Positions 50,703 through 61,463 of a stretch of DNA of 64,000 nt are shown piece after piece. Under the pieces are notes generated by a model. The model was not told where the DNA came from. It ran no database searches and was given only the letters and a program-made list of their open reading frames with translations. Positions within the stretch are counted from its first letter, which is position 1; each line of letters starts with the position of its first letter. The stretch is taken from positions 612 to 64,611 of the forward strand of contig JAZRDB010000013.1 in NCBI GenBank assembly GCA_045660045.1. The letters run 5' to 3'. This DNA comes from Alphaproteobacteria bacterium. GTDB lineage: Bacteria > Pseudomonadota > Alphaproteobacteria > CAAHEQ01 > UBA3637. The translations under genes and the position numbers were made by a program.

Positions 50703-51332
50703 ATGGCCAATTCAGGAAGAACACCTTGGCAATTGACACGCCTGCTGATGATTCTTTGTTGGCTATTGTGGATTATAACATTTTTTATAACGGTCACTTT
50801 GTTTCAGGCTGTTCTGCAGATTCACGTTGTATCGCAAGTTCTTCAAAACGTGGAAAAAAGCTTTATGTGGTTTAGCCAAGATTTAGTTCGAGCCACGCCG
50901 TTGAATGTTGTTGATCGGGGGCGTTTGGATGAAATGTTGGTACGGTATTATTTGGAAATGAGGTATTCTGTGATTCCTGATCGAGCCGAAATGGAACATC
51001 GTTGGGGTGAGAATGGTATTGTGGCATATTTGTCCAGCCCTGCTGAATATAAGAATTTTAAACCAAATTCAAGTTTTTTTGACAAGGTTGATAATATGCA
51101 ACCGAGTGTGGTGGATATTTTGAAAGTGGATCGCAAAGGTACCTATTTTACTGTTGACTTCGACGTCTATACTTTCGATGGATCCACAAATTGGAGAAAA
51201 GAACCACGGCGCGTTGTGGTACAATATACCTATGCATCGGGGCGTAAGTTGTTGGGGAAATCAATATCAAATCCATTTGGTTTTATTGTAACGCGGGTGG
51301 ATGAATCTGACAGAAAATCGGTGACGCAGTAA
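50703..51332 (+). CDS. virB8: Type IV secretion system protein VirB8 (copy a)
   Basis: 209 aa with a short cytoplasmic N-terminus, one TM helix (LLMILCWLLWIITFFITVTLF) and a periplasmic NTF2-like domain with VRYYLEMRYS and …VVVQYTY… motifs. Confidence 0.7.
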   Translation: MANSGRTPWQLTRLLMILCWLLWIITFFITVTLFQAVLQIHVVSQVLQNVEKSFMWFSQDLVRATPLNVVDRGRLDEMLVRYYLEMRYSVIPDRAEMEHRWGENGIVAYLSSPAEYKNFKPNSSFFDKVDNMQPSVVDILKVDRKGTYFTVDFDVYTFDGSTNWRKEPRRVVVQYTYASGRKLLGKSISNPFGFIVTRVDESDRKSVTQ

Positions 51333-51401
51333 TTTTTTAATTGATAAAATTATTTAAAGTGTTAAAATGAAAATTATGAAGGGATAACAGAAAGGGTGAA
51401 A

Positions 51402-51578
51402 ATGCAAAAAATAGTTTATACATGTTTGGCTGTAGCAGCCATTGTTTTGGGGGCTTGTGGAACGATTTATGAAAAAGCACCGGTTGGAATTGGCACGGAA
51501 TATTCCGAGTTGAAAAAATCCCCTTGTGCATGTTTGGAGTTAAAGAAAGCACCAGAAGTGCCAGAATGGTTCTCGTAA
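51402..51578 (+). CDS. virB7: VirB7-like small lipoprotein
   Basis: 58 aa with lipobox IVLGAC. Its size and its position between two virB8 genes and upstream of virB9 match rvh-type loci. Confidence 0.5.
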   Translation: MQKIVYTCLAVAAIVLGACGTIYEKAPVGIGTEYSELKKSPCACLELKKAPEVPEWFS

Positions 51579-51594
51579 ATTAAAGTGAGGATGT

Positions 51595-60000: not shown

Positions 60001-60470
60001 CTGAATTGAATGAGAAAGACAGCGTAGCTTCTACAACACAAAACTCTTCTGGTGGAACAACGTCTCAAACGGCGGCATCGCAAACGCGGACCGCATTTAT
60101 TGACAATTTCAAAGAAATGTGGGAGAAGTTGATGGAAATGGCAGAGGAAGTGCCGAATATTGTATATGTGCCATCTGGCACGCGTTTGACGGCTTTTGCT
60201 AGCGAAGATTTATGGCTACGTTCTGTGGAAGACGATGAAGAGGCTATGAAAAAAGAGTTTGGTTTCTCGCCTAGCGCATTATTACCGAATAATGGTTCTT
60301 GGGTCAATGGACGTAAAGATAAAAATGATGGGGGGGGCTCTAAAAATAAAAAAGAAGATTCCGTTCCTTCGCCACCCCAAGAGGAGCCTATCTATGTCCC
60401 AGACGATATTGATGACAGGGTGAGAAAGCCGGTGAATCAGCAGCCCGAACAACCACCTGCATATTTCTAA
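54063..60470 (+). CDS. virB10: Giant type IV secretion system protein VirB10 (2135 aa) with a ~1700-aa internal repeat domain
   Basis: N-terminal TM helix (WILSVLGLIVLILFVAVLCS). About 95 degenerate 17-18-aa repeats of the form G-x-x-[IVL]-G-x-[VI]-x-x-[DN]-G-x-V-[VIL]-[DN]. A proline stretch (PPPAPKVPKIP) follows. The C-terminal VirB10/TrbI domain includes VPAVLVRSIDS…, ILIPAGSRLIGQ… and ISWKRLIRPDG…. The acidic tail ends …PPAYF. Confidence 0.8.
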   Translation: MAGSHESLSEQSRRRTSWILSVLGLIVLILFVAVLCSMRKKSTQVVQREDRPSFVVQSTFGDDSDFSGTLPEFGVRNAQLVVTPDNVDLSQVVLGSQAEAALVLRAENGPLVFLQKYLAEAPEGGFMLTGPCMEKTQLEEGEECLLKVTWAPITVQTIQNTLTIVWREDNARVFQDERTQIQLKASSTDSKECVCCEIEKDKDPKVPRKVVGIDGQERELKDGEKVVGEVILDEEGNVVAIVEPERVALGLNNEYLGRVTDRRTVEDKNGEVLGRLLGDDTLVDSEFNVLGAAVPLVSVLDAQGVVIGKMVADDDGARVVDAEGNVIGTPRVDKSVVDKAGFQIGMLRDWGAALDLSGNYMGVILPTAAVIGTDKKIMGYIQQNGFVTNDAGALVGGVVPKGAGVGTGCRSYGTVALTGQVKDTYGQVIGRVLLDGAVVDTNFNEIGSVVNQGLIVNMKGDVVGFVNSEGKGVDGKGNLMGCVSPNGMVAAGKKVVGGVMQKGYVTGETCGVLGSVYPNAQVMSAELREIGKVRADGYVINGNNKRIGVVVPHGTVLAEGCRLVGVISVTGQVLNQQNMSVGCINMEKKAIDTEGREVGKITPTGPVLAADGSLVGRARYDGRIVDKTGKIIDCVSPEGTGVGTKRGVVLDENGLPTGWTALAGKCYNDRNEEVGTIAFNGWVSDKEGKMIGFMPADGVVFGLDGVVLGSYNQLMGTATDTKGDPLGRVMPDGTVLDSDGHKILGSLIPESATFLSLDGSVLGTLNYEGRLLNETGQSAGRVLSDGAVYNAENVLIGGVIRSGIVLAANGSEVGFANVKGDVLSKGTRIANLLPNGLAVTPDNRVLGRLWDNMTVAVSAGGVIGPVVLRATSGDNSTYQAAVYDRNGSYVGAMSGYGVLLNSDGRLGGIAFPVTMVVNMDHELIGWVGFRGMVINAEGQVIGQLSQNGLVMNSTGAIVGTVLSKGTVVDGRGGFVGRVAANGGIYNGSGATGLFVGPQTYIFNEDMSINARVLKDGLAIDSSGQVLGWTGFTGQIMNSERALGAVALDNRVTSTEGELVASYVPLGAPSMHDDEKMCAVVAENGTAVSASGRAIGTVMAPDYVVQNNIIVGRIHPSSLFVRNLTNSSLMGIADLDGMVYRANTARQSGTMEMNDLVVDSTKKVVAGLVGTGFATSNNLKSLGRENYTGSVWLAGKVIGSASAINVVEQGDSITGGIFEPAVIVDRNGLEIGRSDALAAVTDKTGKKIASRMAFYSALTPETLWAGGPIRTGAVIDDYARKVGTVAGDGLIMAGSSLKGRILSDGSAAAVANKSVYNPMPYTGHLVTQGLPMGYNKAVLGRTTIQGDLLDASDKVIFQELDDASILGKARPLEGMVLPFRPAVSQNNTLLGVLDGSGKVVDHAGNEIGPVVSNGAVKGDHELKILGSLIPETLVVNECKVIGQTSYNGEVINGQGNTIGRMQADQWAEDPQGKRLGRSVRHGPVMSPTHPAIYLGRTMPDSTVVDTDGAMLGCAQNDKIVKDANGNMLGAVIDRGPVFNKAGDMYGRVDAMGRVIGVDNEVLGYIIGDGTDRAFDFNGNEIGRMVSKTDEILFDENGKFIGTFDLEGYRKDADGNILFRVGKDGTLYDKWGNPIGKLGDGMDYIYLYDMQDKIVGRLNGCDLQKLPGNEKMGSILANGDIRDPNNELILTTSADGKVYNPDGTQYGRFAGVGLDLRRCGLSSSNVGAGRKITWGTKQYNIDDGGMITDNTGRVVGSWDAVNNRPYIWDTAGEQNELREPPPAPKVPKIPSEVRATFDDLQKKRRAQMKEKIGGQPAIIPGPEILARAKGHKDKDWSSVGTNKSNISTWPVDMSRVLLADKAVPAVLVRSIDSRYPTVPVTAIVERHIYAEAGRNILIPAGSRLIGQATSKTGIFGSDQAAKIDISWKRLIRPDGAAFKFEAVSGDAQGRGGVAAYLDLQLMKKFMLPFVSTIGQWPILKATELNEKDSVASTTQNSSGGTTSQTAASQTRTAFIDNFKEMWEKLMEMAEEVPNIVYVPSGTRLTAFASEDLWLRSVEDDEEAMKKEFGFSPSALLPNNGSWVNGRKDKNDGGGSKNKKEDSVPSPPQEEPIYVPDDIDDRVRKPVNQQPEQPPAYF

Positions 60471-60479
60471 GGAGCTAGC

Positions 60480-61463
60480 ATGGGAACAAGACCTGAATCA
60501 CAACGTATTTTAGAAATGGCTTTGAAACCGCTGTCTTATTGGTATGGCCAAGATAATGTGGAAGATGTGGCTGTGAATAATCCCGGTGGTATTTGGTTGC
60601 GTTTACGCGGACGTCATGCGCATCCATGGCATTATTATGAAGATCCAAAATTGACACGGGAATATTTACGCAACATTATGTATATCATTGCGAATAGTCA
60701 AGACAAACCGTTTGGAGATGAGGTTGGTGTGCCTGCTGTGTATACAGAATTGCCTGGGGGGCACCGTTTTGCAGGTATTATTGGGCAAAACGTGAAATAT
60801 GATGACGATGATTTGGAAGGTGGTGTGGCGCTGGATATTCGCGTGTATAAGCCAGATGTGGATATTCACATGGATCAATTTGGTCTTGTTCAAGGCGGCC
60901 GCCTGCATCAAATCAACAAGCTCAAAAATGTGGAAGATCCAGATGATCCATATGAACGGTTATTGCTTTCAATTAAGCGTGGAGATCATATTTTAGTCAG
61001 CGGTGGTACGGCCACAGGTAAAACAACATTTTTGAATAACATGTTGAAGTTGTTGGATGAACATAAACGTATTATCACAATCGAAGATACACGAGAATTA
61101 ATTGTACATCAAAAGAATCGAGTCCATTTAGTGTTAGCTCGTACTGAAGCAAATAACAAATTTGATTATGCGCAAGTGGTGGATTTAGTGGTGCGTTTTA
61201 CGCCAGATGCGATTATCGGTGGAGAAATTTCCACAACAAATGCGGGCGCTATTTGGGAATTGATGAACTCGGGTCACGATAACTGTTTTGCGACTATTCA
61301 CGCTGAAAGTCCGGAAGCGGCGTATCAAGCATTTATTTCTCGTATTATGCATACGAATCCGGCTTTGGATCAAGAAAAGACCCACAAAGAAATGCGTGAA
61401 AAGTTGCGCGTGGTTCAGATTAACCGAGATGGTAATATCCGTGCTATTACGGCAATTACGTAA
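60480..61463 (+). CDS. virB11: Type IV secretion system ATPase VirB11
   Basis: 327 aa with Walker A GGTATGKTT, RIITIEDTREL and HTN…, the VirB11/CpaF-family signature. AAGGAG RBS. Confidence 0.9.
   Translation: MGTRPESQRILEMALKPLSYWYGQDNVEDVAVNNPGGIWLRLRGRHAHPWHYYEDPKLTREYLRNIMYIIANSQDKPFGDEVGVPAVYTELPGGHRFAGIIGQNVKYDDDDLEGGVALDIRVYKPDVDIHMDQFGLVQGGRLHQINKLKNVEDPDDPYERLLLSIKRGDHILVSGGTATGKTTFLNNMLKLLDEHKRIITIEDTRELIVHQKNRVHLVLARTEANNKFDYAQVVDLVVRFTPDAIIGGEISTTNAGAIWELMNSGHDNCFATIHAESPEAAYQAFISRIMHTNPALDQEKTHKEMREKLRVVQINRDGNIRAITAIT

Follow-up and report, generated by a model that had tools for sequence, protein, structure and literature searches.

Does a string in which two VirB8 paralogues flank a small lipoprotein and are followed by VirB9, VirB10 and VirB11 belong among the type IV secretion systems (T4SSs) known as Rickettsiales vir homolog (rvh), or has the same order arisen in a different lineage? 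The question is raised by a locus in a 64,000-nucleotide stretch of contig JAZRDB010000013.1 (assembly GCA_045660045.1, Alphaproteobacteria bacterium), the whole of which is called the window below. An earlier note had described an rvh-like sub-locus lying between infC and dut. ORF inspection and homology searches bear out the gene string itself, i.e. two divergent VirB8 copies around a VirB7-like lipoprotein and then VirB9, VirB10 and VirB11, and turn against the kinship with rvh. The locus at 41868-61463 is, in our judgment, probably the distal part of a chromosomal, vertically inherited P-type (VirB/VirD4) T4SS of a large clade of uncultured Alphaproteobacteria from gut and rumen.

All six previously described open reading frames (ORFs), from VirB8a to VirB11, were confirmed on the plus strand. 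The six ORFs at 41868-50691, here named U1-U6, share their orientation with a spacing of -11 to +15 nt and belong to the same gene string. The operon thus spans 41868-61463 (19.6 kb) and comprises twelve co-oriented ORFs with gaps of -11 to +63 nt: first U1-U6, all encoding signal-peptide proteins, and then the VirB8a, VirB7, VirB8b, VirB9, VirB10 and VirB11 genes. The placement between infC and dut was accordingly right on the dut side, and infC is separated from VirB8a by U1-U6. The operon is made up of the following features:

41868-45599, plus strand: U1, 1,243 aa, a signal peptide and no other recognizable feature, low-complexity sequence rich in Ser/Gly/Ala/Thr (family 10).
45589-46668, plus strand: U2, 359-aa secreted protein (family 9), start taken at ATG 45589 (upstream GTG 45547 in the ORF list).
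46678-47589, plus strand: U3, 303-aa secreted protein (family 8), paralogue of U4, no Pfam match.
47586-48365, plus strand: U4, 259-aa secreted protein of one of the three accessory families kept throughout the clade (family 2).
48358-49512, plus strand: U5, secreted, 384 aa, with clade-wide conservation (family 1).
49528-50691, plus strand: U6, 387-aa secreted, largely helical protein (family 0) with invariant C91 and C386.
50703-51332, plus strand: VirB8a, 209-aa bitopic VirB8 paralogue with NPFG (NPxG) at residue 190.
51396-51578, plus strand: VirB7-like lipoprotein of 60 aa with the lipobox LGAC and a conserved motif, ELKKSPCAC.
51595-52302, plus strand: VirB8b, 235-aa canonical VirB8 (PF04335, 1.4e-13) with an invariant NPLG.
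52354-54054, plus strand: VirB9, 566 aa, signal peptide, CagX/VirB9 domain, variable linker and SPOR-like C-terminus.
54063-60470, plus strand: VirB10, 2,135 aa (PF03743, 6.8e-26, residues 1855-2052; NF038091, 1.7e-22).
60480-61463, plus strand: VirB11 ATPase, 327 aa, Walker A GGTATGKTT (PF00437, 8.1e-23).

The VirB8, VirB9, VirB10 and VirB11 domains by which a P-type T4SS is recognized are collinear in this string (PF04335, PF03524, PF03743 and PF00437/TIGR02788). Of the two profiles that the earlier note had named by accession, PF04335 matches VirB8b and PF03524 matches VirB9; the VirB11 family, also named there, is matched through TIGR02788. VirB8a remains below the PF04335 cut-off (E=0.008). 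It is nevertheless a genuine VirB8 paralogue: BLASTP links it to VirB8b (E 5e-10, 26% identity over 106 aa), and an hhalign comparison with the VirB8b family aligns its periplasmic domain (97.7%, E 2e-12). Both copies are present in 82 loci, and the NPxG motif is kept in 82/82 sequences of each, with N215, P216 and G218 invariant in VirB8b. VirB8a is the faster-evolving of the two, the mean within-paralogue distance being 1.97 as against 1.24 for VirB8b. The lipoprotein encoded between them, a very short protein, gave no profile match and was assigned to VirB7 by its lipobox cysteine, its position and its conservation in 61 distinct sequences. Two conjugative relatives discussed below, L006 and Sphingosinicella p1, have its motif, ELK(K)SPCAC, in the ORF at the VirB7 position as well (L-numbers designate related loci); in the latter the ORF that bears it is small and unannotated (L094 ~12090-12280).

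VirB9 carries its CagX/VirB9 domain at residues 94-345 (nt 52633-53388; PF03524, 1.2e-14) and its SPOR-like domain at residues 514-564 (nt 53893-54045), with C550 and C560 invariant. The SPOR match of the window protein is borderline (E 1e-3); across the family the CagX domain is detected in 43/43 members and SPOR in 35/43 (best SPOR E 1.4e-6), and the outgroup VirB9 proteins are without a SPOR domain. VirB11 is of the VirB rather than the TrbB type, scoring 147.7 bits with TIGR02788 (3.8e-43, below the cut-off of that model) versus 82.4 bits with TrbB_P. All NCBIfam equivalog scores lie far under their cut-offs and phmmer searches of the PDB with VirB8a, VirB8b and VirB9 returned no match, which together mark the system as very divergent from those that have been characterized.

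The giant VirB10, which like the SPOR-like end of the 566-aa VirB9 had passed without remark in the earlier note, begins with a transmembrane (TM) helix (residues 19-37) and an Ig-like ASH/choice-of-anchor-D region (residues 77-165, nt 54291-54557). Next comes a beta-flower repeat array at residues 225-1760 (nt 54735-59342). A linker rich in Pro then leads to the TrbI/VirB10 domain at residues 1855-2052 (nt 59625-60218), and the protein ends in a tail of 83 aa that is charged and Pro-rich. In the PDB the protein matches ComB10 (2bhv, 3.7e-10). The array is matched by Bflower_2 in ten stretches (3.3e-59) and also by Bflower; at least 46 hairpins of 17 residues with a D/N-x-x-G tip are detectable, at a modal spacing of 17, and the span would have room for about 90 such units. 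The giant size is clade-wide, at 1,930-2,779 aa in 60 loci versus 548-607 aa in the outgroups. When the virB10 gene was searched for DNA repeats of the CagY kind, direct repeats exceeding 24 nt were absent and TRF detected no tandem repeat. The beta-flower fold was first described in 2023, without a known function, and apart from CagY we found no other giant repeat-bearing VirB10.

A scan of GTDB species-representative genomes matched 134 relatives, of which the best 80 were examined; related loci compared overall number about 90. The best 80 of the 134 carriers are almost all metagenome-assembled genomes (MAGs) from gut or rumen (goat, sheep, yak, buffalo, deer, rabbit and human), among them 'Acetobacter sp. 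CAG:977' and 'Acetobacter sp. 46_36', and the 94 homologous clusters of VirB8b come entirely from metagenomes or MAGs, the few named ones being 'Alphaproteobacteria bacterium'. The clade may correspond to GTDB order RF32. The order B8a-B7-B8b-B9-giant B10-B11 is found in nearly all 80 loci, down to a VirB8b identity of 32%. Relative to the closest genome, RGIG1596 (GCA_017412085.1), identity falls from 97% in VirB11, the most conserved gene of the cluster (at least 65% across the clade), through 91% in VirB9, 85% in VirB7 and 71% in VirB8b and VirB10 to 68% in U6, 62% in VirB8a and 47-51% in the fastest-evolving genes, U1-U5. The neighbourhood in the window consists of chromosomal housekeeping genes (uvrA, htpG, lepA, lptD, dnaA, hpf, ptsN, rnhA, infC and dut), and the G+C content of the operon is similar to that of its surroundings except in the low-complexity U1. 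The upstream neighbours vary by species, being infC, uvrA, ligA or lptD-surA-folD. The conserved order, the housekeeping flanks and the varied upstream neighbours taken together point to an old, vertically inherited chromosomal system and not to a recent mobile element.

The remainder of the machine can be read from relatives. As the earlier note had stated, virB2, virB3 and virB4 are not in the window, and virD4 does not directly follow VirB11, where dut begins after 13 nt instead; tblastn with clade sequences found none of VirB2, B3, B4 and D4 in the 64 kb. Relatives show both joined and split arrangements. The complete string, B2-B3-B4-(U)n-B8a-B7-B8b-B9, occurs in L089-L092 and L100, with one to three copies of TrbC/VirB2, a VirB3-like ORF of 96 aa with two TM segments overlapping VirB4, a VirB4 of ~810 aa (PF03135) and then four to six secreted ORFs before VirB8a. 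In L098 and L099, from a species common in the human gut, the genes that come after the B2-B3-B4-U cluster are unrelated to the system, and presumably the lineage of the window has this split form. A VirB5-like gene is found in the clade as the first ORF after VirB4 in L098 (PF07996 over nearly its full length, E 3.8e-4). VirD4 adjoins the cluster in L063 (PF02534, 4e-56) and L086 (61% identical).

Several observations on these relatives are recorded in their own right. In two MAGs, L022 and L024 (10700-20600), the operon has a further break point: the string ends after VirB8b and unrelated minus-strand genes come next, and VirB9, B10 and B11 must be encoded at another place. L100 encodes, beside two ordinary VirB2 paralogues, a giant pilin fusion of 710 aa with an N-terminal TrbC/VirB2 domain (7432-9564; 6e-9). 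Next to the virB2-B3-B4 end of L089, L091, L098 and L100 (~1-9000), and divergent from it, stands a TcpQ-secretin-PilO-(unknown)-T2SSE-T2SSF cluster resembling a type IVb pilus; this synteny, seen in every relative examined, may reflect a functional link. Candidates for VirB6 beside VirD4 in L063 and L086 were rejected, one being a membrane-anchored SNase-like nuclease and the others having no family match; the ORF at L063:3672-4556, directly after VirD4, combines three TM segments with a staphylococcal-nuclease domain (PF00565, 2.2e-8).

The accessory proteins U1-U6 gave no Pfam or NCBIfam match. The U4, U5 and U6 families always occur in the same order ahead of VirB8a (in 48, 51 and 59 loci, respectively), and U6, the most widely conserved accessory gene, is always directly upstream of VirB8a. 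U1 has a single N-terminal hydrophobic segment, is 47% identical in the closest genome and contains a 129-nt direct repeat (43555-43683 and 43732-43860, 92% identical) that is a recent internal duplication. Profile-profile comparison shows U3, U4 and two further families (5 and 19) to be paralogues (hhalign 95-98%), the U3 family reaching 98% with family 5 and 82% with that of U4; the links of U2 and U5 are weaker (U2 80% with the U3 family and, weakly, 67% with the VirB5-like set; U5 75% with family 5). U6 is homologous to part of the family 11 proteins of 1.2-1.9k aa (96%). Across ~115 columns the C-terminal half of U4 aligns with VirB5-like proteins (86.7-92.9%, E 4e-6 to 4e-7), and those comparators, from the clade and its relatives, themselves match PF07996 (E 3.8e-4 and 0.016). 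By these comparisons at least U4 appears to belong to a VirB5-related paralogous family, which U2 and U3 probably share, with U2 a possible distant VirB5-family paralogue. Searches of the PDB with the U4 and U6 family profiles gave chance matches only. Two further assignments for U6 were rejected: a hidden second VirB9 at the position of RvhB9-I, the comparison with VirB9 giving only 2.4%, and orthology with the 420-590-aa secreted proteins of the conjugative relatives, for which there was no signal.

These genes bear on the alternative that survives best, an adhesion or surface apparatus like Trw of Bartonella in place of a translocon. It would attach the cell to a host or to particles by displaying VirB5/VirB2-like proteins of variable sequence and perhaps also the repeats of VirB10. 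In Trw, trwJ and trwL are amplified and no coupling protein is known, a parallel for the several fast-evolving VirB5-related paralogues, the one to three VirB2 paralogues of relatives (the 710-aa fusion included) and the recent internal repeat of U1. VirD4, however, adjoins the cluster in at least two clade members and VirB11 is under very strong constraint, and adhesion would in any case be compatible with secretion; we regard adhesion as the apparatus's role as unlikely.

Less probable still is that the locus serves for mating-pair formation in an integrated conjugative element, or in what is left of a plasmid, and transfers DNA among gut bacteria. The closest loci outside the clade do carry VirD4, a topoisomerase, a primase and a MobA/MobL relaxase, members of the clade have VirD4 too, and homologues of VirB11 are found on 4,841 plasmids. 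Yet no relaxase, integrase, primase or topoisomerase occurs in the window or in the ~90 related loci, and the flanks are housekeeping genes, with dnaA 21 kb upstream of the operon. At least 80 species representatives carry the cluster, with a divergence that tracks the rest of the locus and a conserved B11-dut-SH3 synteny; the G+C content, U1 apart, offers no contrast with the surroundings; and the clade-specific giant VirB10, the SPOR domain and the U genes are untypical of mobile modules of this kind. Protein to bacteria, protein to a host and DNA are the substrates to be considered, and protein secretion is favoured over conjugation because of the missing relaxase in ~90 loci and the fixed chromosomal location.

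That the locus is a true rvh member or its direct sister, with the order ancestral and the host a deep rickettsial or Holosporales-like lineage, is largely refuted and now very improbable. Several features had spoken for it. The order in Rickettsia typhi is rvhB9-I, rvhB8-II / rvhB7, rvhB8-I, rvhB9-II, rvhB10, rvhB11 / rvhD4, which the window matches from rvhB8-II to rvhB11 (PMC4676284). The upstream VirB8 copy is the faster-evolving one, like RvhB8-II, the system is split in some genomes, RvhB7 too has a short E-I/L-K-(K)-S-P-C motif, and one MAG of the clade (L077) is titled 'uncultured Rickettsiales bacterium'. However, the defining traits of rvh are duplication of RvhB8, RvhB9 and RvhB4, several copies of RvhB6 and the absence of VirB5 (PMC11077975), and RvhB8-II is without the NPXG motif (PMC4676284). 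Here all 82 VirB8a sequences have NPxG and the clade has a VirB5-like gene; within the ~90 loci examined no second VirB9 or VirB4 was seen, both of which rvh duplicates; no expansion of VirB6 is seen in the B2-to-B11 operons, VirD4 does not follow VirB11, and no VirB9 precedes VirB8a, that slot being held by U6.

The sequences themselves lead to other relatives. With rvh represented by the genus Rickettsia only (sequences from the supplement of PMC2653234), identity is 26% for VirB11, 23-26% for VirB4 and 30% over 86 aa for the VirB10 domain, and VirB8a and VirB8b gave no BLAST match to RvhB8-I or RvhB8-II. An exhaustive search of 1.84 billion representatives found outgroup VirB11 proteins 41-45% identical to that of the window, to which Rickettsia VirB11 is less close than are over 110 other representatives of 50%-identity clusters. 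The outgroup locus L093 has the make-up of a usual VirB operon, in which VirB8 is single, VirB10 has 607 aa and VirD4 is present; intein-type domains (LAGLIDADG, Hint/Hom_end) occur in its VirB4 and VirD4 (L093:1-2714 and 17980-21083), a side observation on this nearest non-clade system. The best plasmid match of VirB11 (40%) is on Sphingosinicella sp. BN140058 p1 (NZ_CP035502.1), in the company of a MobA/MobL relaxase, VirD4, topoisomerase and primase.

Trees were built by neighbour-joining (NJ). In that of VirB11 the clade has 100% bootstrap support and is nested with conjugative loci in a group of 114 sequences (87%) that leaves out Rickettsia, pXAC64, IncX1 and Ti; by distance Rickettsia ranks 121-124 of 125. 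The VirB4 tree (500 bootstraps) joins the clade to the Sphingosinicella plasmid in 100% of replicates and to Rickettsia (RvhB4-I) in 0%. In the VirB8 tree VirB8a, VirB8b and the single VirB8 of the conjugative relatives form a group (72.5%) that excludes both Rvh paralogues, and the pairing that shared ancestry with rvh would predict, VirB8a with RvhB8-II and VirB8b with RvhB8-I, appears in 0/200 replicates for each. The lineage is thus shown, to the extent that protein comparisons can place it, to descend from the Sphingosinicella p1-like family of alphaproteobacterial conjugative T4SSs and not from rvh, essentially the outcome that the earlier note had said would tell against its own proposal. 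The single VirB8 of L093, Sphingosinicella p1 and L006 implies that the duplication post-dates the split from these nearest outgroups; most likely it arose within this lineage and the B8-B7-B8 likeness to rvh is convergent. A carrier of Holosporales or Rickettsiales type, as had been suggested, likewise finds no backing, the relatives being gut and rumen MAGs labelled 'Alphaproteobacteria bacterium'.

Least probable of all is a decaying relic without present function, suggested by the absence of VirB4, pilin and VirB6 from the window, as all twelve ORFs are intact (one of 6.4 kb) and tightly spaced, VirB11 and VirB9 are held at 97% and 91% in a genome whose U genes are only ~50% identical, and VirB4 is 64-96% conserved across the clade.

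The chromosomal setting adds three features around the operon:

41740-41867, plus strand: intergenic leader between infC and the operon, with a hairpin, an AT-rich stretch and a Shine-Dalgarno-like site (from direct reading of the sequence).
61477-62043, plus strand: dut, flanking gene and not part of the T4SS, starting 13 nt past VirB11.
61985-62506, plus strand: SH3-domain protein, flanking gene and not part of the T4SS.

The leader hairpin (AACGCCG...CGGCGTT, followed by a T-run, at 41740-41773) lies 3' of infC, and the strong Shine-Dalgarno-like AAGGGAGGA at 41855-41863 precedes ATG 41868, with the AT-rich stretch between the two. A consensus scan reported no promoter or terminator by its own rules, because the loop exceeds 8 nt, and the elements read here are putative. 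The B11-dut-SH3 order is kept throughout the nearer subclade, in view of which dut may be co-transcribed with the T4SS; dut has a charged C-terminal tail of ~40 aa, and its 3' end overlaps the SH3 ORF if the latter is taken from the upstream GTG of the ORF list. Cumulative GC skew is lowest at 12-14 kb, at the switch of the genes from minus to plus orientation, and dnaA is at 19402-20790 (minus strand); the replication origin is probably near 13.7-14.3 kb, with the T4SS operon on the leading strand 28-47 kb away. Elsewhere in the window, a 1,077-aa ORF (28602-31835, minus strand) looks like a fusion of inner- and outer-membrane components of lipopolysaccharide transport, as its residues 6-352 match an LptF/LptG permease domain (4.6e-66) and its residues 650-1011 an LptD domain (2.2e-46), and a ThyX-like ORF (16188-17528, 446 aa) has a Thy1 domain at residues 9-215 only, the ORF being ~2x the length of the domain.

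A mechanistic interpretation of the chromosomal, vertically inherited P-type system can be built on established T4SSs, in which the core at the outer membrane is made up of VirB7, VirB9 and the C-terminal domain of VirB10, VirB10 runs through both membranes, the arches in the periplasm consist of VirB8 and VirB5 is located at the pilus tip. The corresponding proteins of the window, VirB7, VirB9 and the C-terminal domain of VirB10, would form such a core. The VirB10 array of ~1,500 residues, lying between an inner-membrane helix and an outer-membrane domain, is for that reason predicted to be periplasmic, and at a core symmetry of ~14-fold it would add a very large extra periplasmic layer. The machine may be tethered to peptidoglycan by VirB9 through its SPOR-like end, possibly with a part played by the beta-flowers, and the two VirB8 paralogues would build an inner periplasmic scaffold. 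VirB11, together with VirB4 and VirD4 encoded elsewhere, would power contact-dependent export of proteins to neighbouring cells, and the fast-evolving VirB5-related U proteins may be pilus-tip or surface contact factors under diversifying pressure.

Several points weigh against this picture. The complete machine is presumed by extrapolation from relatives, no VirB2, B3, B4, B6 or D4 being present in the 64-kb window, and VirD4 was seen in just two of the ~90 loci. A hydropathy screen, which found 4-9 TM segments in the VirB6 of Agrobacterium, IncX1 and pXAC64 used as controls, detected no polytopic VirB6-like protein, whether in the window or among the operons of the clade and of its conjugative relatives that are complete. 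Nor did any gene prove to encode an effector, a relaxase or an immunity protein. The kinship of the U proteins with VirB5, drawn from hhalign values of 67-93% over the C-terminal half only, is of moderate and not strong standing, and single-sequence AlphaFold2 models of U4 and U6 (pLDDT 39.7 and 44.6) are both unusable. The placement and role of the VirB10 array are purely what we infer. With regard to descent, the NJ trees compare very divergent proteins with Rickettsia as the sole representative of rvh, and the short motif common to RvhB7 and the window lipoprotein leans the other way.

The system appears undescribed, in agreement with the earlier note; our literature search found no paper on it, nor one on a VirB9 with SPOR or on T4SSs of RF32 or CAG genomes. 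New are the beta-flower VirB10 of 1,930-2,779 aa, the SPOR end of VirB9, the fast-evolving VirB5-related paralogues and the want of a recognizable VirB6. It is tempting, although we hold it doubtful, to see here a third 'expanded' T4SS architecture beside Cag and Dot/Icm. The machine would then work without a VirB6 channel subunit, on a scaffold of two VirB8 paralogues, a peptidoglycan-tethered VirB9-SPOR and ~14 VirB10 copies with ~18 beta-flower modules each; the beta-flower fold would acquire its first cellular role; and abundant non-pathogenic gut Alphaproteobacteria would be acting on neighbouring bacteria or the host.

The locus has a wider bearing. RvhB8-II proteins have been described as 'not found in other bacteria' (PMC4676284) and rvh has been called a 'bona fide rickettsial signature' (PMC11077975); tandem VirB8 copies around VirB7 having been held unique to Rickettsiales, a second independent origin offers a natural comparison for the purpose of having two. 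The giant VirB10 sets the beta-flower fold within a defined machine. The passage of T4SSs through the cell wall and the inner membrane is a matter to which both the fusion of VirB9 with SPOR and the seeming absence of VirB6 are relevant. Finally, the carriers include common MAG species of the human gut and of ruminants (CAG:977, Hadza and rumen), for whose ecology a conserved contact-dependent secretion system would matter.

Among known systems, the closest relatives by sequence are the conjugative T4SSs of Sphingosinicella p1, L093 and L006 (VirB11 40-45% identical). They have the order B2-B3-B4-VirB5-like-secreted protein-B7-B8-B9-B10-B11 and the 'PCAC' motif in VirB7, and like the present system no polytopic VirB6 in the slot between B4 and B8. 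They differ in having a single VirB8, a VirB10 of 548-607 aa, a VirB9 without SPOR and a linked relaxase, VirD4, topoisomerase and primase, and in being borne on plasmids or elements rather than chromosomally fixed. More distantly, Agrobacterium pTi, IncX1 pOLA52 and Xanthomonas pXAC64 encode the VirB7-B11 families in equal order, with a VirB11 identity of just 23-28%; the extra VirB8, the VirB9 SPOR, the giant VirB10, the six secreted proteins and the absence of VirB6 set the window system apart from them.

The Cag system of Helicobacter pylori has a VirB6 homologue, whereas none was seen in the clade of the window. It shares with the present system an enlarged VirB9 (CagX) and many secreted accessory proteins without a family match. 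It is likewise an expanded P-type system, whose VirB10, CagY, has ~2,000 aa, its membrane anchor being separated from the VirB10 domain by a huge internal region of repeats (PMC5954226). The repeats of CagY, however, are alpha-helical and encoded by near-identical recombining DNA repeats (PMC2581425, PMC2194252), as opposed to 17-residue beta-hairpins in the window, and the resemblance is functional only, with no specific sequence relationship. With rvh, in turn, are shared the two divergent VirB8 copies around VirB7, ahead of VirB9, VirB10 and VirB11, with the upstream copy evolving faster, the scattering of genes in some genomes and a chromosomal, lineage-wide occurrence. The differences comprise a VirB10 of 483 aa in R. 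typhi versus ~2,100 aa here, the NPxG retained by VirB8a, the VirB5-like gene of the clade, the missing VirD4 after VirB11, hosts that are gut and rumen MAGs, and the lack of any sequence or phylogenetic affinity. Thus, by layout the system is rvh-like in its VirB8 duplication and Cag-like in its giant VirB10, enlarged VirB9 and orphan accessory proteins, and it is a member of neither.

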